Assembly: GCA_963786765.1 (NCBI GenBank)
Contig: CAWBAJ010000022.1
Coordinates: 42,297 to 74,296 of the forward strand
DNA: 32,000 nt
Direction: 5' to 3'
DNA from: an uncultured Actinomycetota bacterium
GTDB lineage: Bacteria; Actinomycetota; Actinomycetes; Actinomycetales; Kineosporiaceae
Positions 1 through 16,709 of the stretch are shown piece after piece. Position 1 is the stretch's first letter; the number at the start of each line of letters is the position of its first letter. Position numbers and translations under genes: made by a program. The notes beneath the pieces are model-generated. The model made no database searches and was not told the DNA's origin. It saw nothing but the letters and a program-made list of their open reading frames with translations.

Positions 1-215
1 CGCAGCTCGGCCGGCTCAAGACCATGATCGACGGGCTCGTCGCAAGCGGCTTCGTCACCGACCTCGCGTCGGGCAAGTTCCACCAGTCCTACGAGCAGTG
101 GAACACCGGCGCACGCAACGTGATGGCCGGCCTCGAGGGCATGAGCAGCTTCCTGCGTACCGCGGTCGCCCAGCACCAGCAGCTCGACCAGCAGCTCAGC
201 AGCTCCGTCGGCTGA
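1..215 (+). CDS. WXG100/Esx-like small T7SS substrate (5' end outside window)
   Basis: The frame is open from nt 3 to TGA 213-215 (in-window ATG at 24). The ~70 visible aa are small, helical and Gln/Ala-rich. They have a central Trp turn (SYEQWNTGARNV; W-x-x-G, not strict WxG) and end in AQHQQLDQQLSSSVG. The gene lies 43 nt upstream of, and co-oriented with, the FtsK-type T7SS ATPase. The call rests on size, composition and context. Confidence 0.5.
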   Translation, partial: QLGRLKTMIDGLVASGFVTDLASGKFHQSYEQWNTGARNVMAGLEGMSSFLRTAVAQHQQLDQQLSSSVG

Positions 216-258: not shown

Positions 259-3200
259 ATGATGCTGAGGCTGACGTTGAGGCATCCCGCGTCGGGAGCG
301 GAGGCGGACGTCGAGGTGACGGCGGAGCCGGGCAGCAGTGTCGGCTCGCTGCTTGCCGCCTCGCCGATCCCCGTCGCCGGCCGGCCCTGCTACCTCGCGC
401 GCCCGGAGGGCAGTTCTGGCTCCGTGGTCCGGCTCGACCCGGACGCGACCCTCGCCGCCGCGGGCATCACCCACGGATGTGTCGTCTCGGTCGGTGCCCC
501 GGCCGCCGTTGCGGCCGGCGGGCCGCCGGCGGCGGCCGGGGCACTCGAGATCGTCGACGGTCCCGGCCGCGGGACTCTGCACTGGGTGGCGCCCGGCCGG
601 CACGTCGTCGGCCGGGGCAACGCCGCGGATGTCCGGCTCGAGGACCTCAGCGTGTCGCGGGCGCACGCCGGGCTGGACGTCGGCGCCGATCGGGACGCCA
701 CCTCGGTCGCCGACCTCGGCTCCAGCAACGGCACCACCCTGGACGGCCGGCCGCTCGGCACGGGCCCGCTGCACGGGGGCAGCCGGATAGGGATGGGCGA
801 CACCGTCCTGCAGTGGACGCCGTTGCCGGCCCGGGCAGCGCATGCGACGCCGAGCCCGGACGGGCGCCTCGACTTCGACCGCGCCTTTGCCCCCGCACCC
901 GCTCTTCCGCGCACCCGGATCACGTTCCCCGACGCGGCCGCCGAGTCGTCGGCCCTCGTCCGGGTCCTGCTGACCGCCGGCGCGCCGCTGCTCGCCGGCG
1001 TGCTCATGGCCTGGCTGTTCCGGCAGCCGGCGATGCTGCTCTTCGCCGTGCTCGGCCCGCTCATGGCTCTCGGGCCCTACCTGGGCGATCGCCGGTCGCG
1101 GGGGCATCGCAGCCGTGAGCAGCGAGCCGTCCGGGAGCGGGCCGAGCGCGACCTCGCCGAGCACGTGCGGCGGGAGGAACACGCTCGCGCCACGCTGACC
1201 CCCGACCGCGTGCACCTCGCCGCCGCTGCCACCGGCGCCGGTCGGGGACTGTGGCCCAGAGGCGGCGAGAGCCCGCACGGCCTCGTCGTCCGGGTCGGGA
1301 CCGCGGACGCCGAGGCAATGCTGGACCTGCATGGGACGCCGTGGCCCGGCTTCCGCCCGCCCGTCCTGCGGGCGGCGCCCGTAACCGTCGACCTGCGCCG
1401 GGCCGGCGTGCTCGGCGTGGTCGGGAAGCCCCGGGACACCGCACCGCTGGTCCGCTGGCTGGTGACGCAGCTCGCCGTTCTGCGCAGCCCCGAGGACCTG
1501 ACGCTGGTCGTGCTCGCGGCCGACGACGCCGATGCCGAGGACGACCTCTCGTGGACGCGCTGGCTGCCGCATGCCGAGGTCGGCGAGACCGGCCGCGCGC
1601 CGTGCCGGATCGGCGTCACCGCGGCCACGCGCACCGCGCGGCTCACCGAGCTGACCGAGCTGATCGCCGCTCGGCGCACCGCCGCCGACGCCGGGCCGGC
1701 GGACGCGTGGGCCCAGGAGGTCGTCGTCCTGTTGCAGGGCGCCGTCGCACTGCGCCGGCTCCCTGGTATTCGCCAGGTGCTGCGCGAGGGACCCGCGGTC
1801 GGCGTCCACGCGATCTGCGTGGACCGGCAGGACCTGAACGAGTGCCACGCCCTGTGCGCCGTCGACGGCGACCGCCTCGTCCTGACGCCCAGCCGACAGG
1901 AGCCGTCCGTCGTCGTCCGTGCGGAGGGGCTCGACCTCGCAACTGCGGGCGACCTCGCGCGGTCCCTCGCGCCGATGCGCGACCGGCTGACACTGGCCGG
2001 CGCGCAGGCCGCCGTCCCGTACCCGGTGCGCTATGTCGACCTCGTCGCGATGCCCGAGCCCTCACCCGAGCACGTGCGCCAGCGGTGGTCGGCCCGGCCC
2101 GGGCCGACCACCGAGGCCGTGCTGGGCGCGGACGGCGCCGGGCGGGTGTGCGTCGACCTCGCGCGGCAGGGGCCGCACACGATGCTCGGAGGCGCCACCG
2201 GTGCCGGCAAGAGCATCCTGCTACAGACCCTGGTCACCGCGCTCCTGCTCGACAATCGCCCCGACGAGCTGAATCTCGTGCTCGTCGACTTCAAGGGCGG
2301 CAGCGCTTTCCTGCCGTTCGCGGGCTGCCCGCACGTCGTCGGCCTGATCCGCTCCACCGGGAGCACGCCCGCCGACGTGTTCGACGAGGCCGCCGCCGTC
2401 CGCGTGCTCGCCTCGGTGCGCGCGGAGGTGCGCCGCCGCGAGTCGATCCTCGCGCCCTACGGCGGCGAGCTCGACGAGTACTGGCGGGCGCGGCGCACGG
2501 ACCGCAGGCTGGCGGCGCTGCCCCGGCTCGTCATGATCTTCGACGAGTTCGCGCGGGTACTCGAGACGACCCCCGACTTCCTGCGCGAGCTCGTCAACGT
2601 CTCCGCCAAGGGCCGCTCGCTCGGCATCCACCTCGTGCTCGCGACCCAGTCGCTGCAGGGCAAGCTCTCACCGGAGCTCAAGAACAACATCGACCTGCGG
2701 ATCTCGCTGCGCCAGAACGAGGTGTCCGACAGCGTCGAGGTGCTCGGCGCACCGGACGCGGCCGGGATCCCGGGACACCTGCGAGGCCGCGGCATGATCC
2801 TCTGCACCAGGGACGAGGTGCGGCTGCCCCGGGTGTTCCAGTCGGGGTACCTCGGCGACGCTCCCCCGCGCGGCGGCGCCGTGCCCGCCCGGGTCCGTCT
2901 CGTCGACTGGCCGAGCCTCGGCGCGGACCGGCCGGAGCCGGACGACGCCTCGCGCGGTGGGGACACCGACCAGACGCTCGTGATCGCCGCGATCGAGCAG
3001 GCCGCCCGCGAGCTCGCCGTCCCCGCGCCCTCCCGGCCCCTGCTCCCACCGCTGCCCGCCGTCGTCCGCCCCGCCGACGTCGACCAGCTCGCGACGGTCG
3101 CGCCGGCGCCCACCGCCGTCCCGTTCGGCCTCGTCGACGACCCCGCCGGCCAGGCCCAGCTGCCCGCCGTCCTCGACCTGGCGGGCACCGATCGGCTCCT

Positions 3201-4605
3201 GATCGCGGGCGGTCCCCAGTCGGGTCGGACGACGGCCGCGCGTGCCCTCGTCCGCGCCCTCGCCGTCCGCTTCCGCCCCGACCGGGTACATCTCTACGTC
3301 CTCGAGCAGCACCCCGGCGGACTCGCCGACGCCGCCCGGCTTCCGCACTGCGGAGCGGTGCTCTCCCCTGCCGAGCCCGACCGGATCCGCCGGTTCGTCA
3401 TCTGGCTCGAGGGTGAGGTGCAGCGTCGCAAGTCCGCCGGATCCACCGCGGCGGCCGCGCTGCCGTGGATCGTCGTCGTGATCGACGGCTGGGAGCAGTT
3501 CGAGAACCGCAGCGACCCGACCTTCATGGAGACGTCGCTGCTGGGCCGCCTGCGCGCCGTGATCACCGCGGGGACGCCGCTCGGAGTCCACGTCGTGGCC
3601 CTCGGCGGCCAGGACCTGCTCGCGGGCAAGCTGCCGGCGCTCTTCAGCCGTCGCATCCTGCTGCCGTTCCCGCAGGAGGACGTGCGGCGTGCGCACCTCC
3701 TGCCCGGGACCCCGCGTCCGCCGCTCGTGCCGGGCCGCGGCATCGACGCGGCGACCGGCCGGCAGGTCCAGGTCGTCGACGCCGATCTGGCCGATCTGGC
3801 CGATCTGGCCGATCCGGCCGATCCGGCCGATCCGGCCGGGCTCGGCGACCTGCAGCGGCCCATCGGCGGCGCCGTGGCCGTGAGCTTCCCGAGCCTGCCC
3901 GTCGCTGTGCCGTCGCGAGAGGTCGCCCGGCCCGTCGGCGTCGCCGATACCTGGGTGCCGCTCGGCGTCGGCGGTCAGGACGTCGGTCCCGTCGGCGCCG
4001 ACCTCTTCGAGGCGGGGCCGCACCTGCTGCTGATTTCGGGACGGGCCGGCTCCGGCCGCACCACGGCGCTCGCGGCGCTCGGGGGGGCGCTGCGCCGCGC
4101 CGGTGTGGGGGTGCTGGCCGTGGCACCCCCGCGCTCGCCGCTGCCCGGGCTGCTGCCCGAGGACGACGGCGTCCGCGTGGTGAGTGGCACGACCGTCAAG
4201 GACCGTGACCTGCGGGACGCTGTCGCGGCCTTCGGGGACGGCCGGTACGCGATGCTCGTCGACGACGTCGAGCAGCTCACCGTCGTCCCCGAGCAGGACG
4301 GCTTCGCCGACCGGCCGACGGTGCTGCAGGACGTCGCCGCTCCCGGGGCGCTCGGCACCCGCGCGCTGGTGCTCGCCGGCGACGCGCTGCCCGTGCTCTC
4401 CGGCGGGCGACGGAACCTCATGCGCGTGGTCACCGAGGTGATGACGTCGGGCCGGCGGCTGCTGCTCACGCCGACGCAGCCGATGGCGGCCCGCGAGCAC
4501 GGCGTCAACCTGGAGCCCGACCAGTTCCTCGCCGGGCCGCCCGGGCGCGGCTACCTCACCGACGGCTCCGACCTGCAGCTCGTCCAGCTGGCCCTGCCCT
4601 CGTAA
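259..4605 (+). CDS. EssC/EccC-type type VII secretion ATPase (beta-grasp + FHA + 2 TM + three FtsK/SpoIIIE P-loop domains)
   Basis: 1448-aa ORF; ATG 259 is preceded by GGGGAGG (249-255). aa 1-79 look like a YukD-type beta-grasp (LTLRHPASGAEADVEVTAEPGSSVGSLL...ATLAAAGITHGCVVSVG). aa ~96-187 are an FHA domain with canonical residues (VGRGN, SVSRAH, SSNGTTLDG). Two TM helices span aa ~231-275. Walker A motifs are GGATGAGKS (nt ~2188-2214), GGPQSGRTT (~3205-3234) and GRAGSGRTT (~4035-4064). Overlapping ORFs on both strands are Arg/Pro/Gly-rich shadow frames. Confidence 0.9.
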   Translation: MMLRLTLRHPASGAEADVEVTAEPGSSVGSLLAASPIPVAGRPCYLARPEGSSGSVVRLDPDATLAAAGITHGCVVSVGAPAAVAAGGPPAAAGALEIVDGPGRGTLHWVAPGRHVVGRGNAADVRLEDLSVSRAHAGLDVGADRDATSVADLGSSNGTTLDGRPLGTGPLHGGSRIGMGDTVLQWTPLPARAAHATPSPDGRLDFDRAFAPAPALPRTRITFPDAAAESSALVRVLLTAGAPLLAGVLMAWLFRQPAMLLFAVLGPLMALGPYLGDRRSRGHRSREQRAVRERAERDLAEHVRREEHARATLTPDRVHLAAAATGAGRGLWPRGGESPHGLVVRVGTADAEAMLDLHGTPWPGFRPPVLRAAPVTVDLRRAGVLGVVGKPRDTAPLVRWLVTQLAVLRSPEDLTLVVLAADDADAEDDLSWTRWLPHAEVGETGRAPCRIGVTAATRTARLTELTELIAARRTAADAGPADAWAQEVVVLLQGAVALRRLPGIRQVLREGPAVGVHAICVDRQDLNECHALCAVDGDRLVLTPSRQEPSVVVRAEGLDLATAGDLARSLAPMRDRLTLAGAQAAVPYPVRYVDLVAMPEPSPEHVRQRWSARPGPTTEAVLGADGAGRVCVDLARQGPHTMLGGATGAGKSILLQTLVTALLLDNRPDELNLVLVDFKGGSAFLPFAGCPHVVGLIRSTGSTPADVFDEAAAVRVLASVRAEVRRRESILAPYGGELDEYWRARRTDRRLAALPRLVMIFDEFARVLETTPDFLRELVNVSAKGRSLGIHLVLATQSLQGKLSPELKNNIDLRISLRQNEVSDSVEVLGAPDAAGIPGHLRGRGMILCTRDEVRLPRVFQSGYLGDAPPRGGAVPARVRLVDWPSLGADRPEPDDASRGGDTDQTLVIAAIEQAARELAVPAPSRPLLPPLPAVVRPADVDQLATVAPAPTAVPFGLVDDPAGQAQLPAVLDLAGTDRLLIAGGPQSGRTTAARALVRALAVRFRPDRVHLYVLEQHPGGLADAARLPHCGAVLSPAEPDRIRRFVIWLEGEVQRRKSAGSTAAAALPWIVVVIDGWEQFENRSDPTFMETSLLGRLRAVITAGTPLGVHVVALGGQDLLAGKLPALFSRRILLPFPQEDVRRAHLLPGTPRPPLVPGRGIDAATGRQVQVVDADLADLADLADPADPADPAGLGDLQRPIGGAVAVSFPSLPVAVPSREVARPVGVADTWVPLGVGGQDVGPVGADLFEAGPHLLLISGRAGSGRTTALAALGGALRRAGVGVLAVAPPRSPLPGLLPEDDGVRVVSGTTVKDRDLRDAVAAFGDGRYAMLVDDVEQLTVVPEQDGFADRPTVLQDVAAPGALGTRALVLAGDALPVLSGGRRNLMRVVTEVMTSGRRLLLTPTQPMAAREHGVNLEPDQFLAGPPGRGYLTDGSDLQLVQLALPS
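3781..3834 (+). repeat. In-frame 9-bp tandem repeat, 6 units (3 x GCCGATCTG + 3 x GCCGATCCG), encoding (ADL)3(ADP)3
   Basis: Read directly: gccgatctg x3 then gccgatccg x3. It encodes ..VVD-ADLADLADLADPADPADP-AGLGDL.. in the linker between the 2nd and 3rd P-loop domains of the ATPase. Confidence 0.95.
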
Positions 4606-4608: not shown

Positions 4609-5388
4609 TCAGGCCGGAAGAAGGCCGGTAAGGACGGCGGGGCCCGTCCGGGCCGGGTTGTTGTCCGGTTCCAAGGTGATGACCATTCGCGAACCAGGGT
4701 TCTGCTGCAGGTCCCAGACGGTCCACATCCTGACGTCAGCGGAGGTGCCGCCGGGCGGGATCTCGAATGAGCCCGCGGAGACGGCGTCCGGGTGCGACAC
4801 GGTGTCGTCCGTGCCGACGTACCAGCACTCGTAGTGCCCCTCCCCGTCAGGAACGGGCGAAAGGCCGCTCACGGTGAGTCGGACGGACCAGCCGTTGTCG
4901 GTGTTCTCGCCCACTGCCTCGCCGCGGGCAGGTCCGCCGTTCGGGGCCTGGAGAGCGATCGTCACGGTGGGCGGCGCGGACTGCCGGAGGGCCCAGATCC
5001 CGCCGCCGGCGGCGATCAGGACGGCGGCGGCTGCCGCCACGAGCCACGTCAGGGGACGGCGAGGGCGCCCCCGGCGCTCCGCCAGGCCCACCACGGGTGC
5101 GTCGCCGGCCTGAGCGACGGAACGGTGGACGGGCTGCTCGGCGGCTGCTTCCCGGACGGCGCGGAGCGTGCGCTCCTCGAGGCCGGGCGGCAGCTCGACA
5201 GGCGGTGCGGCCACGCCGAGGAGCGCGCGTGCCGGCCGCAACTCGCGGACCTCCTTGCGGCAGGCCTCGCAGGTCTCGAGGTGGGCGGCGAAGCGCTCGG
5301 CCTCCTGCGGGTCCAGAGCACCCAGCACCCAGGCGGCGGCGTCAGCGTGCGGGCCCGGCCCCTCGAGCTCCGGTCGCGGCTCAGACAT
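4609..5388 (-). CDS. Membrane-spanning zinc-binding (ZAS-type, RskA-like) anti-sigma factor
   Basis: The protein starts MSEPRPELEG... and carries an H-x3-C-x2-C motif (AAHLETCEACRKEV). It has one TM helix (LTWLVAAAAAVLIAAGGGIWAL) and an extracytoplasmic C-terminal domain. Start ATG 5388..5386 overlaps the sigma-gene stop (ATGTCTGA, 8-nt overlap). The 15 upstream codons in the ORF track (MACARCARACRREGS) are treated as non-coding. Confidence 0.8.
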   Translation of the reverse strand: MSEPRPELEGPGPHADAAAWVLGALDPQEAERFAAHLETCEACRKEVRELRPARALLGVAAPPVELPPGLEERTLRAVREAAAEQPVHRSVAQAGDAPVVGLAERRGRPRRPLTWLVAAAAAVLIAAGGGIWALRQSAPPTVTIALQAPNGGPARGEAVGENTDNGWSVRLTVSGLSPVPDGEGHYECWYVGTDDTVSHPDAVSAGSFEIPPGGTSADVRMWTVWDLQQNPGSRMVITLEPDNNPARTGPAVLTGLLPA

Positions 5389-5950
5389 CGAACCCTCGCG
5401 CCTGCAGGCCCGCGCGCAGCGCGCGCAGGCCATGGAACATCCGCGTCTTCACCGTTCCGAGCGGGATGCCGAGCCGCTGCGCGATCTCCGACTGGGTCAT
5501 GCCCTCGTCGTAAGCCAGCGCGAGAACCTCGCGCTGGGGCGCGCTCACGCCGTCCAGCGCCTCGCGGACGACGAGGCTGTCCATCAGCTGGTCGACGTTG
5601 TCCTCGACCGGCGGCAGGAACACGTCCTCGACAGGTCCGTGGACCCGCGACGACGGTCGTCGCCGGACGTCGGTTGCCACGCTGCGCGCGATCACGAACA
5701 GGTAGGCGCCCACGGTCCCTCGTTGCGGATCGAAACGGGAAGCCGTTCGCCAGAGCCGCACGAACGTCTCCTGCACGACCTCCTCGGCCAGCCCAGAGTC
5801 CGCCAGCAGGCGCAGGGCGAACCCGTAGATCCGTCCGGAGTAGCGCCGGAACAGCTCCGCGACGGGGGCGCCGTCGTCGCCGGCCGCCATGCGCGCGACG
5901 AGTTCGGCGTCCTCGCGTGCCAGCTGCTCTCGCGCATCCTCGCCTACCAT
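5381..5950 (-). CDS. ECF (group IV sigma-70) RNA polymerase sigma factor
   Basis: Region 2 reads ELFRRYSGRIYGFALRLLADSGLAEEVVQETFVRLWR. Region 4 HTH reads REVLALAYDEGMTQSEIAQRLGIPLGTVKTRMFHGLRALR. I chose the start at MVGEDAREQ (ATG 5950..5948); the longer ORF-track extension to 6163 is Arg/Pro/Ala-rich with no sigma similarity. Confidence 0.85.
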   Translation of the reverse strand: MVGEDAREQLAREDAELVARMAAGDDGAPVAELFRRYSGRIYGFALRLLADSGLAEEVVQETFVRLWRTASRFDPQRGTVGAYLFVIARSVATDVRRRPSSRVHGPVEDVFLPPVEDNVDQLMDSLVVREALDGVSAPQREVLALAYDEGMTQSEIAQRLGIPLGTVKTRMFHGLRALRAGLQARGFDV

Positions 5951-7942: not shown

Positions 7943-8260
7943 ATGGCCACCTCCTTCGGATGCAATCCCCCCGCGGCGGTTCGAGCGGCCGGCGAGCTCG
8001 CCGCGATCCGGCAGGACGTGGCGAGCGCCGGGCAGCTCGACTCCGGATCGGGCGTCACCGGTTCCGACCGCATCGAGGCGGCGCTGCACGCGTTCTTCAC
8101 GGACTCGACGCAGAGCCGGCAGAACCTCGAGCACCTGCTCGACCGGGCCGTCGGAATGCTCCGCGGCCTCGCGACCGGCAGCACCGACCTGGACCGCAAC
8201 CTCGCTACGGCTCTGACGCCCGGCCGCACGACGGTCGCCGGTCCCGGCAGCCCGCGTTAG
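7943..8260 (+). CDS. Small (105 aa) predicted helical protein, first gene of the Rhs toxin operon; candidate T7SS targeting/partner protein
   Basis: ATG 7943 with GAGAGGA ~10 nt upstream. GC3 is high in this frame. There is no signal peptide or TM helix. The sequence is Ala/Leu/Asp-rich (..AAVRAAGELAAIRQDVASAG..RIEAALHAFFTDSTQSRQNLEHLLDRAVGMLRGLATGSTDLDRNLATAL..). The function is inferred from position only. Confidence 0.6.
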   Translation: MATSFGCNPPAAVRAAGELAAIRQDVASAGQLDSGSGVTGSDRIEAALHAFFTDSTQSRQNLEHLLDRAVGMLRGLATGSTDLDRNLATALTPGRTTVAGPGSPR

Positions 8261-8284: not shown

Positions 8285-8998
8285 GTGACCACCTCCACGA
8301 TCCTCCCCGCTGCGGTGATCGGATTCTCGCTGCGCGTCCCCGAGAGCTGGTACGAGTTCGACATCTGGCGGGCCACCCGCACCCGACACCTACCCCGCCT
8401 CGTCGAGGAGCGGGTGGCGCGGGTGCCGGAGCTGGCCCCTCGGGCGCAGGCCCTGGTGCGCCTCCTGCGCAGGGTCGCGGAGGATGCCGAGCGCGCCGGG
8501 GCGGTCTACTGCGCGGCTCTGGCCGAGCCGGTCGGCGTGGCAGGCTTCCTTACGGCGTCCTGCACCGTCCTGCAGACGCCGGGACCGGACGACCCGGCGC
8601 AGCGGAGCGTCGGGGCCATCGCCGCCGGCATCCCCGCGACCGGCGCGGCGCTCGGCGAACCGGGCGCACGCGAGGTGGTCCTCCTCGAGCACCCGGCAGG
8701 CCGCGGCGTCCGGGTCCGTGAGATCGCCCTCCTGGACGGCTGCGCCGACGGCGACGGCGGGACTCCGACCGGGCCGACGGAGCACGTCGTCATGCACACG
8801 CTGCTGCCCTCGCCCGGGTGGTCCGATGCACGCCGCGGCAGCTACGTCGTCGACCTCGTGCTCGCCAGCCCCCAGGTGCAGCTCGCCGCCCCGATGCTCG
8901 ACCTCTTCGACGTGATCAGCGACACCTTCCGCTGGATCCCCGCGCCTGAAGTGGACGAGCAGGAGACGGCTGCAGCGGGCGAAGGACGGGCGTCATGA
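8285..8998 (+). CDS. Hypothetical 237-aa protein coupled to the Rhs toxin gene; candidate chaperone/adaptor
   Basis: GTG 8285 with GAGAGG 6 nt upstream. Stop TGA 8996-8998 overlaps the Rhs ATG 8995 (ATGA). The N-terminus has an h-x-h-x-VP-x-x-W strand motif (GFSLRVPESWYEFDIW), which I associate with PsbP/Mog1/DUF1795-type folds. There is no signal peptide or TM helix. Confidence 0.6.
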   Translation: MTTSTILPAAVIGFSLRVPESWYEFDIWRATRTRHLPRLVEERVARVPELAPRAQALVRLLRRVAEDAERAGAVYCAALAEPVGVAGFLTASCTVLQTPGPDDPAQRSVGAIAAGIPATGAALGEPGAREVVLLEHPAGRGVRVREIALLDGCADGDGGTPTGPTEHVVMHTLLPSPGWSDARRGSYVVDLVLASPQVQLAAPMLDLFDVISDTFRWIPAPEVDEQETAAAGEGRAS

Positions 8999-11900
8999 AC
9001 GACTGGAGCGTCCTCGGTCTGCCCGGCGACCCGACCCCCGGCGACCCCGCGGGCACGAGCGCACTGGCCGCCCGGCTGCGCCGCGAGGCCGACCGGGCTC
9101 ACAGCAACGACGTCCGGTTGCGGGCGATCGCCGCCGGCAGCAGCGACCTGGCTCTGCTCGGCGACTACGCACCGAAGTACCGCGACGCGCTCGCCGAACT
9201 ACCGGGCGAGGTCGGCAAGCTCCAGAAGGCGTTCTGCGGTGCGGGGGACGCGCTCGCGACGTACGCCGACCAGCTGAGCCAGGCCAAGGCGCGCGCGGCC
9301 ACAGCCCTGCAGGAGGGCGAGGACGCCGACGCGCGCTACCACGGCGCGATGAACGAGCTCCGGGCCGCGCTGCCAGGCCCGCGGTCCGCGCTGCTCTCCA
9401 GCGGGCTGGGCCTCACCCCGCTCGCGCTCGCCGCCGCAACCGCCGGGCTCGACCCGGGCACGACGGCGACCGTGCAGTCCGCGGCGGCGCGCGCCCGCAC
9501 CGCTGCAGCCGATCGGGACGCCGCCCGCAGCCTGGCCGATCAGGCTGCGGCGCTGCGCGGGGACGCCGAGGCGCGCTGCGTCGACGGCGTCAACGCCGCC
9601 CTCGACGGCAGCGGCATCAAGGACAAGACCTGGTGGGAGCGAGCCTGGGACCGCGCGACGGCACCCTTCAGCTCGTGGGACGCGTTCGTCTCCCTGTGCC
9701 GAACTGTCGCGATCATCGCGGGGACGGTCGCGCTGTTCATCTCCGGCCCGATCGGCCTGGCGCTCGTCGCGATCGCCCTGATCGCGAGCGCGGTCGTCGT
9801 GCAGGACACGGTGACGAAGTTCGCCCAGGGCCGGGCGACGCTCCTGGACGTCGGACTGGACACCCTCGGCCTGATCCCGGGCGAGGAGGGGGTCGGCGAC
9901 CTCGCCCGGCTCGGTCCCGGCGCGCTCGGCCTGGCCCGCGACCTGCCGTCCGCCGGCCGCGCCGTCACCGGGCTGCTGAGGAGCGGCCGCGCGGCGCTGC
10001 CCGCGATCCGCGACGTCCTCGGTGACCTGCGCCAGAACGCGATCCCGGCAGCCAAGCGGTTCCTGAAGATCGACCCGATCGACATGGTCACCGGCGAGAT
10101 GGTGATGCAGGAGACCGACGTCCGGCTGCCCGGAACCCTGCCGCTGGTGCTGAGCCGGACCCACGCCTCCTCCTACCGTGCCGGGCGCTGGTTCGGCCGG
10201 TCCTGGACGTCGACCCTCGACCAGCGGCTCGAGGTCGACGGCGGCGGGGTGCTCTTCGCCGGCGAGGACGGCGTGCTGCTCGCGTTCGCACTGCCTGCCG
10301 AGGGCGCCGCCGTCGAGCCGTACGAGGGGCCACGTCTGCAGCTGAGCCGTGAGGGCGAGCACTACCGGCTGCTCGACCCGCAGACCGGACGAACGCTGAC
10401 CTTCGCGGCCGCCGGCGCCGAGCCCGGCGTGCTGCCGCTGCGGTCGATCAAGAACAGGAACGGCGACCGGATCGAGATCTCCTACGACGTCACCGGCATG
10501 CCCGTCGTCGTGCGGCACAGCGGCGGCTACGCCGTCGGTGTCGACACCTCAGCCGGGCTCGTGACGGGGCTGCGGCTGCTCGGGGCCGACCGGGACGGCG
10601 ACGTCGTCCTCGCGCGCTACGACTACGACGGCGCCGGCCGGCTGATCGCCGTCACGGACACCTCCGGCGTGGCGCTGCGGCTGGAGTACGACCCGGCCGG
10701 CCGGATCGTCGGCTGGCACGACCGCATCGGCACGTCGTACCGGTACGGCTACGACGCCCGGGGGCGCGTCGTGTGGACGTCCGGCTCGGCGGGGTGCCTG
10801 GACGGCACGCTGCGCTACGACGAGGAGCAGCGGACGACGACCGTCGTCGACTCCCTCGGCGCCACCTGGAAGTACGCCTACAACGAGGACCTGCAGGTGG
10901 TCCGCGAGGTCGACCCGCTCGGGGGCGTGACCCGGTACGCGTGGGATCGCTACGACCGGCTGCTGATGCACGAGGACGCGCTCGGCGCCGTCACCCGGCA
11001 CACGTACGACGAGGCCGGCGACCTGATCCGGATCACCCGCCCCGACGGCGCCACGTTCGCCGTCAGCTACGACGAGCACCACCTCCCCGCCGTCGTCAGA
11101 CGGCCCGACGGCGGCGTCGAGCGACGCGTGCACAGCAGCGCGGGGAACCTCGTCGCGGTCACCGATCCTGCCGGCGCCGCCACCCGGTTCGGGTACGACG
11201 AGCGCGAGCACCTGGCAAGCGTCACGGACGCCGCCGGCGGCCTCACGGTCGTCAGGTGTGACGCCGCCGGGCTGCCGTTCGCCGTCACCGATCCGGCCGG
11301 CCGGACGTCGCGGTGCTCCCGCGACCGGGCCGGACGCGTCACGGCGGTGACGGACCCCGTCGGCCGCACCACGCTCTTCACGTGGACGGACGCCGGCCAG
11401 CCGGCCTCACGCACGCTGCCGTCCGGCCGGACCGAGCGGTGGGACCACGACGCCGAGGGCAACCTCATCGGTCACACCGACCCGGACGGGCACCGCACGA
11501 CCGTCGAGTACACGTGGTTCGACCTGCCGGCGTCGGTCACCGATCCCGACGGGGCGCGCCGCGTCTTCGGCTACGACACCGAGCTCCGCCTCGTCGCCGT
11601 CACGGACGCCGCCGGCCTCGTCTGGCGCTACGAGCGCGACGCCGCCGGCCGGATCGTCCGTGAGCTCGACCTCGACGGCCGCGAGCTGCGCTACGAGCGG
11701 GACCCGGTGGGCCGGCTGACGGCGCAGGTGAACGGCGCCGGGGAGCAGGTCTCGTACCGGCGCGACGTGCTCGGCCGGGTGGTGATGCGGGACCATGACG
11801 GGCTCACGGACGCGTTCGGCTACGACGCGATGGGCCGGCTGCTCCGGGCGACCACGGCCGATGCGGAACTGGGGTTCGAGTACGACCCGGCGGGCCGGGT

Positions 11901-13461
11901 GCTCACCGAGACGGTCGGGGGCCGGGCCCTGACGTCGAGCTACGACGGGGCGGGACGCCGGGTGCGGCGCAAAACGCCCTCTGGTGTCGTCAGCGCATGG
12001 ACGTTCGACGAGGCCTCGCAGCCGCTCGGCCTCGTCGCAGGACCGGGACGGCTCGAGTTCGGGCACGACGCCGGCGGCCGCGAGTCGTCGATGCGGCTGG
12101 GCGAGGCGCTGGTGACGCGCACATTCGACGCCGACGGGCGGCTGCATGCGCAGCGGGTCTCGGTCGGCGAGCGGCGTCTCGTCGACCGGGCCTACCGGTA
12201 CCGCGGCGACGGGTCCCTCACGGGGATCGACGATCCTCTCGCCGGTTCGGTGGCGTTCGACCTGGATCCCGTCGGGCGCATCACGGCCGCCTCGTCCGGA
12301 GGCTCGCGCGAGCGTTTCGCCTACGACGTCGCCGGGCGGCCGCTGGCCGGCGGCGTGCCGTCGTACGAGGGCACCCGAATTCGGCGGGTGGGCAGGACCA
12401 GCTACGGCTACGACTGCCAGGGCCGGATGATCTGGCGGCGGACCCGGACCCTCGACGGGCAGCGCCGGGAGTGGACGTACGCCTGGGACGCCCTCGACCG
12501 CCTCGTCGCCGTCACGACACCGGGGGGCGGTCGCTGGCGCTACCTCTACGACGCCCTCGGGCGGCGGGTCGGCAAGCGGCGCACGGACGGCGAGGGCCGC
12601 GTGGTCGAGCGCGTCGACTACACCTGGGACGGCGCGGTGCTGGCCGAACAGGTACGCCGGTTCCCGGGTCGCGCCACGGCCACCACGTGGGACTGGCGGC
12701 CCGGCACCTTCCGGCCCGTCTCCCAGACCGACCGGGTCGGACTGACGGTCGACGACGTCGCGGACGCGCCGCAGTCATGGGTCGACGAGCAGTTCCACGC
12801 CATCGTCACCGACCTCGTCGGGACACCCACCCAGCTCGTGGACGCCGAGGGTCGCGTCGCCTGGCAGGCCCGGACGTCGCTCTGGGGCGCGCACATCGGC
12901 GAGGGCGCGGACGGCGTCCTGTCGTGCCCGCTGCGCTTTCCCGGCCAGATCGCGGACGACGAGACGGGCCTGCATTACAACTACTTCCGCTACTACGACC
13001 CGGACAGCGGCCGGTACGTCTCGGCCGACCCCATCGGCCTCCTTGGCGGCATCGACCCACACGCCTACGTCCGCAACCCGACGACATGGACAGACCCGCT
13101 CGGCCTGGCGCCGTGCGACGTGGCCGGAGGTGCCGCGAACGCGGCCGACGGCGTCAGACTTGCCCAGCAGCTCACATCGGAGGAGGCCGGCTCGCTGTTC
13201 ACCGGCACGGGTGGCCTCCGGGAGGACGTGATGGCGTCGTCGCGGCTGATCATTCCCGGTGTCGACCTCGACAACTCGGAAGTCATCGCGGAGCTGACCT
13301 CCGACGGGAGCAGGATCGAGGACTGGGGCAAGTACGCCACACCGTCGTTCCGCTCGCCCTCAGGAAAGTTCCAGGTGCACTTCTACTACAACGACACGAC
13401 CAGCACCGTCAATTACAACATCGACTACAAAGCGAAGTTCCAGGGAGGCGGCAGGCGGTGA
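8995..13461 (+). CDS. Rhs/YD-repeat polymorphic toxin with N-terminal T7SS-substrate-like helical domain, TM helices and 117-aa variable C-terminal toxin domain
   Basis: GAAGGA lies 8 nt upstream of ATG 8995. aa 1-~130 are helical with no Sec/Tat signal (MNDWSVLGLPGDPTPGDPAGTSALAARLRREADR...GDALATYADQLSQAKARA). This matches my memory of the 'putative T7SS-secreted protein' N-terminal domain of actinobacterial toxins. A hydrophobic stretch spans aa 231-269 (nt 9685-9801). A DUF6531-like segment reads DPIDMVTGEMVMQETDVRLPGTLPLVLSRTHASSY..GRSWTS. There are many YD repeats (YDYDGAGRL, YDPAGRIV, YGYDARGRV...). The Rhs core end reads PLRFPGQIADDETGLHYNYFRYYDPDSGRYVSADPIGLLGG..NPTTWTDPLGL. The unique tail occupies aa 1372-1488 (nt 13108-13458). 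Confidence 0.92.
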   Translation: MNDWSVLGLPGDPTPGDPAGTSALAARLRREADRAHSNDVRLRAIAAGSSDLALLGDYAPKYRDALAELPGEVGKLQKAFCGAGDALATYADQLSQAKARAATALQEGEDADARYHGAMNELRAALPGPRSALLSSGLGLTPLALAAATAGLDPGTTATVQSAAARARTAAADRDAARSLADQAAALRGDAEARCVDGVNAALDGSGIKDKTWWERAWDRATAPFSSWDAFVSLCRTVAIIAGTVALFISGPIGLALVAIALIASAVVVQDTVTKFAQGRATLLDVGLDTLGLIPGEEGVGDLARLGPGALGLARDLPSAGRAVTGLLRSGRAALPAIRDVLGDLRQNAIPAAKRFLKIDPIDMVTGEMVMQETDVRLPGTLPLVLSRTHASSYRAGRWFGRSWTSTLDQRLEVDGGGVLFAGEDGVLLAFALPAEGAAVEPYEGPRLQLSREGEHYRLLDPQTGRTLTFAAAGAEPGVLPLRSIKNRNGDRIEISYDVTGMPVVVRHSGGYAVGVDTSAGLVTGLRLLGADRDGDVVLARYDYDGAGRLIAVTDTSGVALRLEYDPAGRIVGWHDRIGTSYRYGYDARGRVVWTSGSAGCLDGTLRYDEEQRTTTVVDSLGATWKYAYNEDLQVVREVDPLGGVTRYAWDRYDRLLMHEDALGAVTRHTYDEAGDLIRITRPDGATFAVSYDEHHLPAVVRRPDGGVERRVHSSAGNLVAVTDPAGAATRFGYDEREHLASVTDAAGGLTVVRCDAAGLPFAVTDPAGRTSRCSRDRAGRVTAVTDPVGRTTLFTWTDAGQPASRTLPSGRTERWDHDAEGNLIGHTDPDGHRTTVEYTWFDLPASVTDPDGARRVFGYDTELRLVAVTDAAGLVWRYERDAAGRIVRELDLDGRELRYERDPVGRLTAQVNGAGEQVSYRRDVLGRVVMRDHDGLTDAFGYDAMGRLLRATTADAELGFEYDPAGRVLTETVGGRALTSSYDGAGRRVRRKTPSGVVSAWTFDEASQPLGLVAGPGRLEFGHDAGGRESSMRLGEALVTRTFDADGRLHAQRVSVGERRLVDRAYRYRGDGSLTGIDDPLAGSVAFDLDPVGRITAASSGGSRERFAYDVAGRPLAGGVPSYEGTRIRRVGRTSYGYDCQGRMIWRRTRTLDGQRREWTYAWDALDRLVAVTTPGGGRWRYLYDALGRRVGKRRTDGEGRVVERVDYTWDGAVLAEQVRRFPGRATATTWDWRPGTFRPVSQTDRVGLTVDDVADAPQSWVDEQFHAIVTDLVGTPTQLVDAEGRVAWQARTSLWGAHIGEGADGVLSCPLRFPGQIADDETGLHYNYFRYYDPDSGRYVSADPIGLLGGIDPHAYVRNPTTWTDPLGLAPCDVAGGAANAADGVRLAQQLTSEEAGSLFTGTGGLREDVMASSRLIIPGVDLDNSEVIAELTSDGSRIEDWGKYATPSFRSPSGKFQVHFYYNDTTSTVNYNIDYKAKFQGGGRR

Positions 13462-13823
13462 GAGTCCGTTGCACCAGACTTGTGAGCCCACTCGACGGCT
13501 CGGAGCAGACGAGGAGCCTGTGGGTCGAGGTCGGGCGTGAGTACCAGGTGCTCAGCGTGCTGGTGGACCCTCGCGGGCGTGTCCGAGTTCAGGTTCTCGA
13601 CGACGACAGGGCACCCAGCTACTGGCCCGCCGAGATGTTCGAGACGACGGACGAGAGGGTCCCCGCCAACTGGGTGGCACGGCTGGACGGTCGCGGTGTC
13701 CTGAAGCTGGCTCCCACGTCCTGGTTGCGCGCAGGATTCTGGGAGGACTATTTCGACGGACGTCCGGACGCGATGGCACAGTTCGAGCGTGAACTGCCCG
13801 CCATACTCCAGAGCGAGACGTGA
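13458..13823 (+). CDS. Candidate cognate immunity protein (121 aa)
   Basis: GTG 13458 overlaps the Rhs stop TGA 13459-13461 (GTGA), with GGAGG at 13445-13449. An alternative GTG lies at 13482. The product is acidic and cytoplasmic, with no TM helix or signal peptide (..SLWVEVGREYQVLSVLVDPRGRVRVQVLDDDRAPSYWPAEMFETTDERVPANWVARL..GFWEDYFDG..). It sits exactly where Rhs immunity genes sit. The 487 upstream codons of the ORF-track entry 11997..13823 are a shadow frame of the Rhs gene. Confidence 0.7.
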   Translation: MRVRCTRLVSPLDGSEQTRSLWVEVGREYQVLSVLVDPRGRVRVQVLDDDRAPSYWPAEMFETTDERVPANWVARLDGRGVLKLAPTSWLRAGFWEDYFDGRPDAMAQFERELPAILQSET

Positions 13824-14022
13824 GCCGATCGCTTCGGCAGGGGGCGACACCGCGGGGACCCTGGCCCACGGCTGGTTCGGGCGGCTACACGCCGAGTCGC
13901 CGTTGCCCAGCCCCTCGGCGAGTCGGCTCAGGGTCGATCGCCAGAGTCAGGCACGGGCCGCGATCCCGGGGATCCCGGCACGGCGCATCATCATCTCGTT
14001 CGCGTTGTGGCCGACCTCATGG

Positions 14023-14242
14023 TCAGCTGCAGGCCAGCTCGGCCCGGCGGTGGCAGTACATGCCATCGAAGGCGTCGTGGACCTGGCGGCCTTGGTCCAG
14101 CAGCAGTGCGCCCCCGATGTTGTTCGCTGTCGATCGCCACGGTGACCCGACCCAGGCCGCGCTCGCGCGGCACCAGGTCCGTCTTGGAGCCCTTCTCTAA
14201 CCGTCCCACGCTCGCACGGCTCAGCTGCCTGTCCAGGAACAT
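14023..14242 (-). pseudogene. Short frameshifted ORF of unknown family (possible HTH remnant)
   Basis: Two adjacent minus-strand frames both show high GC3. The first reads MFLDRQLSRASVGRLEKGSKTDLVPRERGLGRVTVAIDSE. After a 1-nt shift near 14118 the second reads NNIGGALLLDQGRQVHDAFDGMYCHRRAELACS*. LSRASVGRLEKG resembles an XRE-type recognition helix, but no family was recognised. Confidence 0.25.
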
Positions 14243-14400
14243 CGGTGCCCGCGACCGGTTCGCCTATCGGCAACCCGATGTGATCCAGAGATCCTTCGTG
14301 CTGACGTCCTGCACGGACAGCTGATTCGACGCCGCCGAATCATGTCCGACCGTCGGTTGAACCAGAACCTACGGCCGGACTCATGCTCGGAGCGGAGAGT

Positions 14401-15063
14401 CTAGGACCCGGGCTCGATAATCACATAGTACGGAAAGACGTCACACCCTCCCTTTCCGACGAATGAAGGTGCCGTGCGTTCCCTGATGTGCACATGGAGC
14501 ACAGCGTGGCCGTTGCTTCCCCAGGGGATACTGATCGGATGAGCGGGGCTGGCCCCGTAGCGAATCGGATCATTAGTTATCTGGTCGGCATAGTCGAATG
14601 TGTTGAAGTTGCCATAGTTGTTCCACGCCCCTTGGGGATAGTTATGATTACCGTCCTCCATGGATGCTTCTGCGTACATGTAGCGCTGTCGCCCCACATC
14701 GTACTGAAGCCAGAGCCCGGTCAGCTGGAAGCCAGAAGCGGTGCGGACGACGGCCAACTGGGCATGGATAACGGCTCGCGTGTAGGGGTACTCACTGCAT
14801 GCCACTTCGTTCTGTTCCGGGAAGGCTTGAAGATAGACCTCGCGGCCGATATCGGCACGCGGTATTGAGCAACGCTGCGTGTTGAACGGCGGCTGACTGG
14901 TCGCATCGTGGCATGCAAGGCTTGGCGAGGCTGCCAGCGCAGGCGTTGTCGGCAGCACCAGGAGACCGGTCAGCGCGACGAGGGTGGCTGCGACGAGATA
15001 CTTCCCGACCGCTGACGCACGGCCAGAACGGTTGAGGGTCGCGCCTTGAGCAGAGTTCAGCAC
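14401..15063 (-). CDS. Secreted hypothetical protein (220 aa), compositionally foreign
   Basis: GTG 15063 has a strong AAGGAGAGG ~10 nt upstream. A Sec signal peptide (KYLVAATLVALTGLLVLPTTPALA/ASPS) precedes a mature part with 4 Cys that is rich in Tyr/Asn/Gly (..NHNYPQGAWNNYGNFNTFDYADQ..). My hand counts of three 60-nt lines in this gene gave 55%, 60% and 42% GC, against 80% for a line counted in the Rhs gene. No family was recognised. Confidence 0.75.
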   Translation of the reverse strand: MLNSAQGATLNRSGRASAVGKYLVAATLVALTGLLVLPTTPALAASPSLACHDATSQPPFNTQRCSIPRADIGREVYLQAFPEQNEVACSEYPYTRAVIHAQLAVVRTASGFQLTGLWLQYDVGRQRYMYAEASMEDGNHNYPQGAWNNYGNFNTFDYADQITNDPIRYGASPAHPISIPWGSNGHAVLHVHIRERTAPSFVGKGGCDVFPYYVIIEPGS

Positions 15064-15609
15064 CTTGGAACGCCTCTCCTTCTTCTGTGTGTCGTACTCA
15101 AAGTAGACTATGCCGAAACTCGGGCTTTCGCTTGATGACGCTATCCGTCAGCGAGCCGCATCGTAAAGGCGATTCGACAGTTGTCGAATGAGTCGGTCTC
15201 AGGACGTGCGTGCCAGATCAGTCTCGAGATGTGGGTGACGCGTCCGGCTGGACAATCCTGAGGCTCGGATTCCAGCGGCCGTCGGATCTGGTGCGAATCG
15301 CCGCCGGACACGCGCGCAGGTAGGTCCTGACGTGAGACCGGGCAACTCGCTGCCTGGCTGCAAGCAAATCCTGACCGGCCAGGTCACGGTGCCCGGGTGC
15401 CAAGTGCCGCGTGCGCGTATCGGTGCCGCTCGCCTGGGCTTCCAGGATGCTTGGCGAAACGGCCTCGGCTGATAACTGGCACTGTGGCGGTGAGTCGCGC
15501 CGGCCTAGGCCCGCGCGGGCCCCCTGAGGACACCTCCGCTCATGCCGATGACCGGGCGAGCGGGGATCGACCGGTCGGCCGGTCCGCATCCACCGGGTCA
15601 CCATCACGG

Positions 15610-16194
15610 TCAACCCCTGTACCCACGGTCACCGGGCATGGGTTGCACTGTGAGGCCCGCGGCGGTGAGGAACTGACGGATCTGGGCGGCGTGCTCAACG
15701 ACGTGCAGCGGCATGCTGCCGACAATCACCGCGAACAGCATTCCGTGGTATCGATGCGCGCTTGGAAGTGGCCGAGCGGCCATCTCCTCGGTGAGCCCGT
15801 CAAGGGTCTGGCATACCCGGCCGCGGCACCAGTCGACGTACCCGAGAAGCTCGGGCTTAGTGAAACTGCGGTTGGGGAAGCCGTAGGTGTTGTCGTCGAA
15901 CGGTTGTGGCGGTGCCCACGGCTCGAACTCGCCAGCCAGGTCATAGTCGAGCGTGTTCAGCGCGTGGTAGCCGAGGAACCAGGGAGCCGACCCGTGCAAG
16001 CCCCCGTGCGGCGCCGGTGCCGTAGGCGCCTGGTCCGGCCACAAGTCCGTCTGCCACAGGTCGTCGGGGCACTCGGTCAGCGCCGCCTCCATCAGCCGCA
16101 GCGCCTGTTCGAAGTTATGAGCCATGCTCTGCACGAACGCGTTCGACACACTGCCGGTATAGTGCATATCGGCGGCCGTGGCACTGACATGCAC
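15610..16194 (-). CDS. DinB-like (DinB_2 superfamily) metal-dependent protein
   Basis: The translation shows spaced His motifs typical of DinB four-helix bundles (..MAHNFEQALRLMEAAL.., ..GYHALNTLDYD.., ..PLHVVEHAAQIRQFL). The start is ambiguous (ATG 16194, or internal Met at codon 10 or 24). Confidence 0.6.
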   Translation of the reverse strand: MHVSATAADMHYTGSVSNAFVQSMAHNFEQALRLMEAALTECPDDLWQTDLWPDQAPTAPAPHGGLHGSAPWFLGYHALNTLDYDLAGEFEPWAPPQPFDDNTYGFPNRSFTKPELLGYVDWCRGRVCQTLDGLTEEMAARPLPSAHRYHGMLFAVIVGSMPLHVVEHAAQIRQFLTAAGLTVQPMPGDRGYRG

Positions 16195-16282
16195 CCACGC
16201 TCTTGCCGCGATCCGTGGCGGTCCTGCACGGACCGCTCGCCGGGGGACATGCCATAGCAGGTGCTCGTCGAGCGGTGTCGGG

Positions 16283-16560
16283 TCATGGTGTCCGGTCGGG
16301 GTGGCGTCGAGGTTCAGGGTTGCGTACCTTGAACCGGGCGATGGGTTTGAGCGTGGTGCGGGCGACCTCGGTCAGATGTTCGTCGCCGCCATAGACGCGC
16401 GGAAGGTGCGATCCGCGGCTTCGACGGTGACGGTGCGACCGGCATGGACATTCCCGTGGACGAGTCATGGCGACCTCGTCGCTGCGGATTTTGTGAGTAT
16501 TGACCGACGCTCACGCGCAAGACGGACACTCTGCGTGCGTGCTGCCCAGATCGGGCGCGC
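16283..16560 (-). mobile_element. IS481-like (integrase-core) transposase C-terminal remnant, frameshifted and with a stop
   Basis: The minus-strand frames, spliced by eye, read ..ARRVSVLRVSVGQ.. / ..LVHGNVHAGRTVTVEAADRTF / RVYGGDEHLTEVARTTLKPIARFKVRNPEPRR*. This is the characteristic tail of actinobacterial IS481-type transposases (RRVS..G..V..Q..VG..HAG..V.V......V.....L..V.RT....I.RFK). No DDE catalytic region or inverted repeat was found. Confidence 0.55.
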
Positions 16561-16709
16561 CGTGCCCGAGCCTGCGGACCCCGCTCCGGTCCGTGAACGC
16601 TGCCAGCACAGCGACTAGCGACGCGATCGCGAGAGCCTGCACGGCGCAGTCCCCGCCGCCGCTCGTGTTCACAACCCTGCCAACGTTCGTGGCCAAGCCC
16701 TCGAGCCTG

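Follow-up and report, generated by a model that had tools for sequence, protein, structure and literature searches.

A type VII secretion-type ATPase with a predicted N-terminal ubiquitin-like fusion and an FHA domain, encoded beside WXG100, kinase and Rhs genes in Actinomycetota

The ATPase and its domains

We analyzed a stretch of 32,000 nucleotides (nt) from an uncultured actinobacterium of the Kineosporiaceae (positions 42,297 to 74,296 of contig CAWBAJ010000022.1, assembly GCA_963786765.1), the whole of which is called the window below. Near its left end lies a gene for a large ATPase of the FtsK/SpoIIIE type known from type VII secretion systems (T7SSs). The end of a WXG100 gene precedes it, and downstream are an anti-sigma factor and an extracytoplasmic function (ECF) sigma factor on the opposite strand, a membrane Ser/Thr kinase, two smaller proteins, and an Rhs polymorphic toxin (Table 1). 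The ATPase is a membrane-anchored T7SS-type protein that is neither a canonical EccC, the ATPase of the T7SSa (ESX) systems, nor a canonical EssC, that of the firmicute T7SSb; an earlier note on the window had likewise found that its design departs from both mycobacterial EccC and firmicute EssC.

Table 1. Features of the secretion-related part of the window (Ubl, ubiquitin-like; TM, transmembrane; AF2, AlphaFold2; aa, amino acids)
Feature	Position (nt)	Strand	Basis or remark
WXG100 (EsxA-like) gene, C-terminal 70 codons only, 5' end beyond the window edge	3..215	+	Pfam PF06013, E 1.5e-6, 28.8 bits against 27.3
T7SS-type FtsK/SpoIIIE ATPase, 1448 aa	259..4605	+	order Ubl, FHA, two TM helices, DUF, D1, D2, D3
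Predicted ubiquitin-like (YukD/EsaB-type) beta-grasp domain, residues 1-80	259..498	+	AF2, Foldseek, family profile, YukD matches in relatives
Canonical FHA domain, residues 94-188, with R119, S133, R134, H136, N157, G158	538..822	+	Pfam, Rv0020c alignment, Foldseek, family conservation
Hydrophobic hairpin, residues ~231-276, taken as two TM helices	949..1086	+	position equals that of the EccC/EssC TM pair
DUF/D0 ATPase-like domain without canonical P-loop, residues ~330-600	1246..2058	+	aligns with the DUF of YukB and T. curvata EccC; within the span of the NCBIfam models for EssC and EccCa
ATPase domain D1, Walker A GATGAGKS (K651, nt 2209-2211), Walker B VMIFDEF (D762-E763)	2101..2853	+	Pfam FtsK_SpoIIIE, residues 619-800
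ATPase-like domain D2, Walker A GGPQSGRTT (R990, nt 3226-3228), Walker B VVVIDGWE	3091..3828	+	aligned to EccC D2 GGPQTGKST
ATPase-like domain D3, Walker A GRAGSGRTT (R1267, nt 4057-4059), Walker B MLVDDVE	3931..4602	+	aligned to EccC2 D3 (6JD5)
Anti-sigma factor (zf-HC2), one TM helix (residues 128-149)	4609..5433	-	Pfam zf-HC2, E 2.8e-7; start probably near nt 5388
ECF sigma factor	5381..5950	-	92.5% identity to the 191-aa L001 ortholog, which has Sigma70_r2 and r4; start inferred from the ortholog
Membrane Ser/Thr kinase: kinase domain, then one TM helix and an extracytoplasmic C-terminal part of ~190 aa	6093..7745	+	Pfam Pkinase, E 2.6e-34
Small ~105-aa protein, candidate Lap/WXG-like secretion partner of the Rhs toxin	7943..8260	+	no Pfam match
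~237-aa soluble protein, possibly a chaperone or adaptor	8285..8998	+	no Pfam match, no TM helix
Rhs polymorphic toxin, 1488 aa, candidate substrate	8995..13461	+	RHS_repeat E 9e-87, DUF6531 E 1.5e-24, RHS core E 1.5e-11
Candidate immunity open reading frame, ~114 aa, right after the Rhs gene	13479..13823	+	position only; no Pfam match

The open reading frame (ORF), taken from stop to stop, has GC fractions of 0.80, 0.55 and 0.92 at the three codon positions, the signature of a genuine high-GC gene; a ribosome-binding site, GGGAGG, lies 7 nt before the ATG, and homologs share the start motif MxLRLTV. Pfam detects FtsK_SpoIIIE with E 2.6e-42, and the top relatives of solved structure are Thermomonospora curvata EccC (4NH0, E 1.7e-62), Bacillus subtilis YukB (9QKS, 6e-48) and Mycobacterium tuberculosis EccC5 (7NP7, 2e-47). 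The NCBIfam models of the T7SS ATPases match as well, each short of its cut-off: EssC (TIGR03928) with 324.4 bits against 778.4 (E 1e-96, residues 371-1114), EccCa (TIGR03924) with 281.9 against 509.15 (E 1e-83, residues 370-865), and EccCb (TIGR03925) with 233.4 against 346.55 (E 4e-69, residues 911-1280). The domain and motif matches of this protein are beyond chance. It has the layout of the EccC/EssC superfamily, i.e. a TM hairpin, a DUF and three tandem FtsK-type P-loop domains, together with the linkage to a WXG100 gene that goes with that superfamily.

Within the hairpin, the first helix (residues 231-254) was flagged by a Kyte-Doolittle scan and the second (about 257-276) was read by eye from the sequence. 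A juxtamembrane motif, DGRLDFDRAFAPAPA, at residues ~200-220 (nt ~856-918), is strongly conserved in the homologs, taking the form (F/W)NRPPR(I/L)R in distant actinobacterial relatives and (Y/F)xRSPR in the TsxC of Bacillota. The equivalent region of YukB, its FHA-stalk linker, binds YukC and mediates oligomerization (PMC12637312).

The N-terminal domain of the ATPase is predicted to be ubiquitin-like. AF2 folded residues 2-78 confidently, as beta-beta-alpha-beta-beta-(alpha)-beta. A first Foldseek run with a two-domain Ubl-FHA model returned FHA matches only, and the Ubl was for this reason modeled on its own; with the isolated model, structures of ubiquitin and of Ubl domains came up at probability 1.0 and a best E of 2.7e-4, among them 6UMM_B, a chain of the ESX-3 translocon. 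A profile made from 39 homologous N-termini matches ubiquitin-type PDB chains with E about 0.002, and in a representative library of 1.84 billion proteins it matches polyubiquitins and, in all, 903 clusters (50% identity) at E ≤ 0.001. Many of these matches are short (70-350 aa) and could be ATPase N-termini truncated by contig ends or free-standing Ubl proteins; those with multiple repeats are polyubiquitins. The Pfam YukD profile (PF08817) reaches two of 40 relatives' N-termini, both of distant homologs, with E 1e-6 at this same position.

It is thus on fold, family profile and context that the domain is assigned to the YukD type. Being internal to the ATPase polypeptide, it is without a free C-terminus, and it sits among T7SS components (the WXG100 gene and the ATPase itself); as in the YukD family, a ubiquitin-type beta-grasp fold would here serve in a T7SS setting and not in conjugation. 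AF2, Foldseek and the family profile support the earlier suggestion of a YukD-like ubiquitin fold fused to the N-terminus of the ATPase. In the survey of Iyer et al. 2006, actinobacterial YukD-like domains were recorded only as fusions to the 12-TM EccD (PMC1779556).

The FHA domain is found by Pfam (PF00498, residues 116-180) with E 2e-10 and 41.4 bits over a cut-off of 20.7. It aligns to the FHA of M. tuberculosis Rv0020c/FhaA (3PO8) with E 5e-10, and the motifs fall in register: GR (R119), S-R-x-H (S133, R134, H136) and N-G-T (N157, G158, T159). In an AF2 model of residues 1-225, with a predicted local distance difference test score (pLDDT) of 88.9, the FHA superposes on GarA, OdhI and FhaA with target-normalized TM-scores of 0.86-0.90. 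All contact residues being present, the domain is predicted to be competent for phosphothreonine binding; Pfam and the 3PO8 alignment agree with the earlier reading of a single FHA that retains every canonical phosphothreonine-contact position. The profile searches for which the earlier note had called thus recover the FHA and FtsK_SpoIIIE domains through Pfam, with no YukD match on the window protein itself.

Only D1 keeps a full catalytic set, GKS followed by hhhhDE. In D2 and D3 the P-loop is well formed and the Walker B Asp is present; the Walker A Lys is replaced by Arg, and no Glu directly follows that Asp. Alignment to EccC bears out K651, R990 and R1267 at the Walker A positions, as claimed from the GKS of the first P-loop and the GRT of the other two: R990 stands where D2 of T. 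curvata EccC has its Lys (GGPQTGKST), and R1267 where D3 of EccC2 has its own (GRQGCGKTT; 6JD5); in D3 the Walker B (LIDDVQ, here LVDDVE) and PPGRG match too.

Arg-type P-loops have been probed elsewhere. In ESX-5 EccC5, the Walker A Arg of the third nucleotide-binding domain (NBD3), R1181, is conserved; R1181A impairs growth and secretion, and R1181K is neutral (PMC4418733). D2 of Staphylococcus aureus EssC also has an Arg Walker A (G1019/R1020), and the membrane complex needs the Walker motifs of this domain to assemble (PMC9436818). It is plausible, from the motifs, that D2 and D3 are impaired in hydrolysis, but Arg at this position is not equated here with a hydrolysis-dead site, because Arg and Lys can be interchangeable, as in EccC5.

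Conservation in the family and gene neighborhood

A homolog search gave 356 proteins at E ≤ 1e-10, and an alignment of 118 near-full-length members was used for conservation. The best 120 of the 356 are nearly all 1380-1530 aa long, nearly all have an FHA domain, and all are annotated merely as 'FtsK/SpoIIIE domain-containing protein'. Hosts of the family include Streptomyces, Micromonospora, Nonomuraea, Pseudofrankia/Frankia, Geodermatophilus, Modestobacter, Janibacter and Pseudonocardiaceae, and there are many members from metagenomes. A scan of GTDB species genomes recovered 16 loci of the family and no close relative, the best match being 62% identical.

Overall identity among the aligned members is only about 30%. 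The G-K-S and the Walker B D-E of D1 are invariant (118/118 each). At the Walker A of D2, 106 of the 118 have Arg and six have Lys, with G989 and the Walker B D1076 present in all; for D3 the counts are 110 with Arg and two with Lys, and 113 and 111 for the Walker B residues D1335 and D1336. In the FHA domain, R119 and S133 are each kept in 108 members, H136 in 110, N157 in 103 and G158 in 112. Such retention of the nucleotide-site and phosphothreonine-site residues points to purifying selection and not to decay, and since the features singled out here are conserved across the homologs they are characters of the family, not peculiarities of one gene. The architecture, which the earlier note considered unusual, is in fact the conserved norm of a large actinobacterial family (Arg in D2 of 106/118 and in D3 of 110/118). 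That note had also allowed that this might turn out to be the common state of a well-described EccC subfamily; common it is, although the family is not well described.

Among the divergent members, P0101, P0112, P0114 and P0117 have Lys in D2 and Arg in D3, and these intermediates suggest that the Lys-to-Arg change came in D3 before D2. P0110 retains Lys in D3, P0087 (1795 aa) has four Lys-type P-loops, and P0102 is another of the divergent intermediates.

For the gene neighborhood, we examined related loci, numbered L001 to L019, with flanks of 10 kb; the ATPase of L001 is 90% identical to that of the window. The window starts inside its WXG100 gene, and no record matched the window ATPase or P0036 exactly; the upstream context was taken from L001, where a complete 97-aa WXG100 gene precedes the ATPase and is 100% identical to the 70-residue part in the window. 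This gene ends 44 nt before the ATPase start. With tblastn, nine related loci show a WXG100 gene within 10 kb of the ATPase, and in L003 Pfam annotation shows one.

With its VAVK, HRD, DFG and APE motifs all intact, the kinase is predicted to be catalytically active; its TM helix lies at ORF residues 394-423. Homologs of it occur within 10 kb of the ATPase in six related loci (L001, L002 with two copies, L004, L011, L012 and L014). The ECF sigma/anti-sigma pair stands between the ATPase and the kinase and is divergent from the latter; the same pair is present in L001, where the anti-sigma factor also has RskA_C, and a related pair in L004. One may speculate that this pair adds a second, transcriptional input of envelope signals to the module.

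In 10 related loci, an Rhs gene is found no farther than 10 kb from the ATPase. The Rhs toxin of the window has, in order, an N-terminal region of ~240 aa (presumed helical), two predicted TM helices, DUF6531, the RHS repeats, the RHS core and a C-terminal domain of ~120 aa; TM helices ahead of the Rhs shell are unusual in a T7SS-linked toxin. A Pfam scan gave no match above threshold for the C-terminal domain, nor for a 280-aa protein upstream in L001. The small ~105-aa protein accompanies the Rhs/WXG100 cassette in five loci (L001, L002, L004, L009 and L012), and in four (L001, L004, L005 and L009) the ~237-aa protein is conserved, with the small protein on one side and the WXG100/Rhs genes on the other.

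Clustering of conserved neighbors in the flanks was noisy, because antisense ORFs abound in DNA of 75% GC; its sole use here was for the negative result that the flanks share no other recurrent family of membrane proteins. The lack of recurring scaffold genes in the flanks implies either that the machine is minimal or that essential parts of it are encoded elsewhere.

Relation to known secretion systems and a proposed mechanism

The ATPase resembles EssC/YukB of T7SSb in having an N-terminal FHA module before the TM hairpin, DUF and three ATPase domains. Further likenesses to T7SSb are a Ubl partner, which in YukB contacts FHA, DUF and D1; a single-pass kinase-fold membrane protein as the partner of the FHA (proposed here); linked Rhs or LXG toxins with small helical partners; and the Arg Walker A (R1020) in D2 of S. 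aureus EssC. Unlike the ATPase described here, with one canonical FHA and an intact kinase beside it, EssC has two FHA domains without the phosphothreonine residues and binds a pseudokinase constitutively; YukD is a separate protein, whereas the Ubl here is fused in cis; and no homologs of EsaA/YueB or EssA/YueC were seen in the window or related flanks. The set that marks EssC, two degenerate FHA domains with EssB, EsaA, EssA and a free EsaB, is not what this locus presents.

With EccC of T7SSa, the ATPase shares the order TM hairpin, DUF, D1, D2, D3, the top sequence match among solved structures, the D2 motif GGPQ(S/T)G-x-(S/T)T, the DD of the D3 Walker B with PPGRG, and, in the case of EccC5 NBD3, the Arg (R1181). 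EccC, however, has neither FHA nor Ubl (its Ubl sits on EccD), keeps Lys in D2, and works within a complex of EccB/C/D/E/MycP. Neither the window nor the flanks of L001-L019 (10 kb) showed genes for EccB, EccD, EccE or MycP, and the presence of an FHA and the place of the Ubl also set these loci apart from T7SSa.

Garrett, Higginson and Palmer 2024 catalogued the further types T7SSc-j (PMC11217815). In D1, the window protein is 28-40% identical to the representatives of the subtypes (a-j, T. curvata EccC, B. subtilis YukB). A rough neighbor-joining (NJ) tree of D1 places the window clade on its own branch, not nested in any represented subtype, with TsdC, the ATPase of T7SSd, among ATPases of Bacillota; the sequences were obtained by optical character recognition (OCR) of a supplementary PDF, with a single one for TsdC, so that the tree is indicative only and does not amount to a phylogeny. 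The label of a T7SSa/T7SSb hybrid, used in the earlier note, holds for the architecture of the protein and fails as a phylogenetic statement, given this branch and the similar distance to all subtypes.

We consider it probable that the protein is the motor or coupling ATPase of a compact actinobacterial T7SS module distinct from ESX/T7SSa, from the firmicute T7SSb and from the published representatives of T7SSc-j. The nearest published system is T7SSd, in which an actinobacterial (Olsenella, Bifidobacterium) FHA-bearing ATPase with phosphothreonine motifs is found with a membrane kinase, a WXG100 gene and Rhs substrates, and which is the sole subtype without a detected ubiquitin-like component (PMC11217815). 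That our ATPase is a TsdC ortholog and the locus a T7SSd as defined in that study is quite unlikely, in spite of the shared phylum, an EccC/EssC-type ATPase with an N-terminal FHA keeping GR, SxxH and NG, a locus that also encodes a Ser/Thr kinase with one membrane pass, a single WXG100 protein and an Rhs toxin, and the lack in both of EccB/D/E/MycP (PMC11217815). Here a Ubl stands ahead of a single FHA, while TsdC has in its place a different N-terminal module of ~110 aa, aligned by its authors with EssC FHA1; our Ubl family profile found nothing in the N-terminus of Olsenella uli TsdC or in other FHA-bearing representatives, and the TsdC bit scores were negative. The P-loops of D2 and D3 keep an intact G-R-[ST] here and are degenerate in O. 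uli TsdC (GTPTS.VES, no G-[KR]-[ST]), as read by OCR from the published alignment. D1 identity to TsdC, about 33-34%, is no higher than to other subtypes, and TsdC does not cluster with our ATPase in the NJ tree, the origin of whose sequences makes this last argument a weak one. No TsdH- or TsdI-like genes were seen at the window locus, and a large secreted protein with Ig-like domains resembling TsdI (~1650 aa, Sec signal) does not recur in the window or related flanks. The hosts differ too, being high-GC actinomycetes (Streptomyces, Micromonospora, Nonomuraea, Frankia/Pseudofrankia, Geodermatophilaceae). Another possibility, which we regard as unlikely, is that of an accessory EccC paralog that plugs into a canonical ESX/T7SSa complex (EccB, EccD, EccE, MycP) encoded elsewhere, as a kinase-regulated, substrate-specific motor. 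The top solved relative, T. curvata EccC, is indeed an actinobacterial T7SSa protein, no scaffold genes recur near the ATPase, and many Streptomyces and relatives have a canonical esx locus. Yet the DUF of EccC is already contacted by the Ubl of EccD, so that a second Ubl, on the ATPase, would either duplicate it or clash with it; against the EccCa and EccCb models the protein falls far short of the cut-offs, its D1 is only 28-39% identical to EccC5 and T. curvata EccC, and the module has a WXG100 gene of its own.

Two other readings are rejected. According to one, D2 and D3 would be dead pseudo-ATPase modules that bind no nucleotide, their Arg being mere drift. The canonical Walker A Lys is described as essential for ATP binding (PMC4418733), D3 of S. 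aureus EssC and both D2 and D3 of O. uli TsdC are truly degenerate in the published alignment, and D2 and D3 here have no Glu directly after the Walker B Asp. Drift, however, would hardly keep G-x4-G-R-[ST] in 106 and 110 of 118 members at such low overall identity, with the Walker B Asp invariant in D2 and present in 113 in D3, and both Arg P-loops that have been probed by experiment, R1181 of EccC5 and R1020 of EssC, are functionally required (PMC4418733, PMC9436818); we judge this reading very unlikely. Scarcely credible is the other reading, a translocase that moves DNA as FtsK, SpoIIIE or TraB do and is regulated through its N-terminal domains, to which the database names of relatives ('FtsK/SpoIIIE domain-containing protein', 'DNA segregation ATPase') and a weak FtsK match (NF007615, E 1.8e-14) might point: the EssC, EccCa and EccCb models match with far better E values, the TM hairpin, DUF and three tandem P-loop domains are the EccC/EssC layout, and a WXG100 gene is adjacent both in the window and in related loci.

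For the favored reading, a compact T7SS module of its own, we infer the following mechanism from the architecture, motif conservation and gene linkage observed above. D1 would hydrolyze ATP and so drive export of the WXG100 protein and, with the small helical partners, of the Rhs toxin. D2 and D3 would bind nucleotide and/or substrate tails and control oligomerization instead of doing work; this regulatory role is proposed because the Arg P-loop of S. aureus EssC D2 is needed for assembly and that of EccC5 NBD3 for full secretion.

The cis-fused Ubl may take the role of the free YukD of T7SSb and of the EccD Ubl of T7SSa. YukD contacts the FHA domains, the DUF and a hairpin of D1 in YukB and is required for complex formation, and the EccD Ubl of T7SSa binds the same DUF surface as YukD does (PMC12637312). 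By packing against the FHA, DUF and D1, the fused Ubl could fix the N-terminal module in a conformation competent for assembly. The FHA would dock on a phosphothreonine made by the membrane kinase, either in that kinase or in the linker of the ATPase, and through kinase and FHA an envelope signal would switch the assembly or the activity of the secretion machine. The live kinase would thereby replace the EssB/YukC pseudokinase; EssC FHA2 binds the EssB pseudokinase without phosphorylation (PMC9436818, PMC11217815). With a phosphothreonine-competent FHA and a live kinase as neighbors, assembly or activation that depends on the kinase and is gated by phosphothreonine is the simplest model. A kinase and a phosphothreonine-competent FHA on the ATPase, with Rhs substrates, are reported for T7SSd, e and j, for which Garrett et al. 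made the same gating proposal (PMC11217815).

A looser parallel, by analogy only, is found in the Rv1747-type exporters. These are membrane transport ATPases with N-terminal FHA domains, encoded beside a Ser/Thr kinase thought to switch them; they differ in belonging to the ABC transporter superfamily and in having no Ubl and no link to WXG100.

Several observations weigh against the favored reading. The Pfam YukD profile gives no match at E ≤ 0.1 on the window ATPase. The neutral R1181K of EccC5 means that Arg need not switch hydrolysis off (PMC4418733). The kinase is not present in the sampled flanks of several related loci. The N-terminus of the Rhs toxin scores below threshold against the T7SS_signal profile (PF21725; E 0.031, 14.6 bits against 27). 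Finally, no membrane components of an outer scaffold (EccB/D/E, EsaA, EssA or analogs of TsdH/I) recur in the 10-kb flanks.

A broader reading, which we offer tentatively as something short of an even bet, is that the family is an uncatalogued minimal actinobacterial T7SS subtype outside a-j. Such a subtype would combine the cis Ubl with a live kinase in the EssB/YukC niche, fire Rhs toxins under phosphothreonine gating, and use Arg P-loops in D2 and D3 to tune nucleotide-dependent assembly; its kinase/FHA logic would be ancestral, with the pseudokinase and degenerate FHA of T7SSb as its fossil. By the marks of T7SSd, the FHA, kinase, WXG100 gene and phylum agree, and the absence of a Ubl, the TsdH/TsdI genes and clustering with TsdC do not.

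Of the three elements taken as unusual in the earlier note, two have been published before: Arg P-loops, and the presence of an FHA domain in a T7SS ATPase of actinobacteria. In the literature available without subscription, we found no published description of a Ubl-FHA-EccC fusion or of this ATPase family; the combination of a cis Ubl-ATPase fusion with Arg P-loops in both D2 and D3, in a compact WXG100/kinase/Rhs module, was found nowhere and appears to be undescribed. The gain is incremental, as every single element has its precedent: a neat confirmation and a tractable regulatory model, with no field-changing surprise.

How T7SSs assemble and are switched on is still an open question, for which this ATPase family is useful. 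A natural Ubl-FHA fusion on an ATPase beside a live kinase is independent, Rosetta-stone support for the contacts of YukD with FHA, DUF, D1 and the pseudokinase seen by cryo-EM. The module has few parts, among them a canonical reader of phosphothreonine and an evident kinase, which makes it a good system in which to test gating of T7SS assembly by phosphorylation. The family is apparently missing from the a-j scheme, though common in antibiotic-producing and plant-symbiotic actinomycetes, which probably use it to deliver Rhs toxins in interbacterial competition.

Other features of the window and flanks

Downstream of the Rhs gene, at ~13800-18400, GC content falls to 63-67%, against about 75% in the flanks, and few ORFs have coding-type GC at the third codon position. 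The recognizable genes, all on the minus strand, are a 220-aa ORF (14401-15063) without a Pfam match, one at 15610-16194 with a sub-threshold DinB_2 match (22.4 bits, cut-off 24.8), and a protein with an ArsR-type helix-turn-helix domain (16710-17900). The stretch may be horizontally acquired DNA or a decayed graveyard of toxin and immunity genes.

Farther on, at 18432-25846, Pfam detects Meth_synt_2 (of the cobalamin-independent synthase family), an aldehyde dehydrogenase, FAD_binding_3, a protein like the protocatechuate 3,4-dioxygenase beta subunit, and Lyase_1. These genes may form a block for aromatic catabolism, which appears unrelated to the secretion module. Outside the window, locus L002 (Streptomyces sp. 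NPDC005962) has Cas1 and Cas2 genes at its positions 1-844, about 9 kb upstream of the ATPase module, probably by coincidence.

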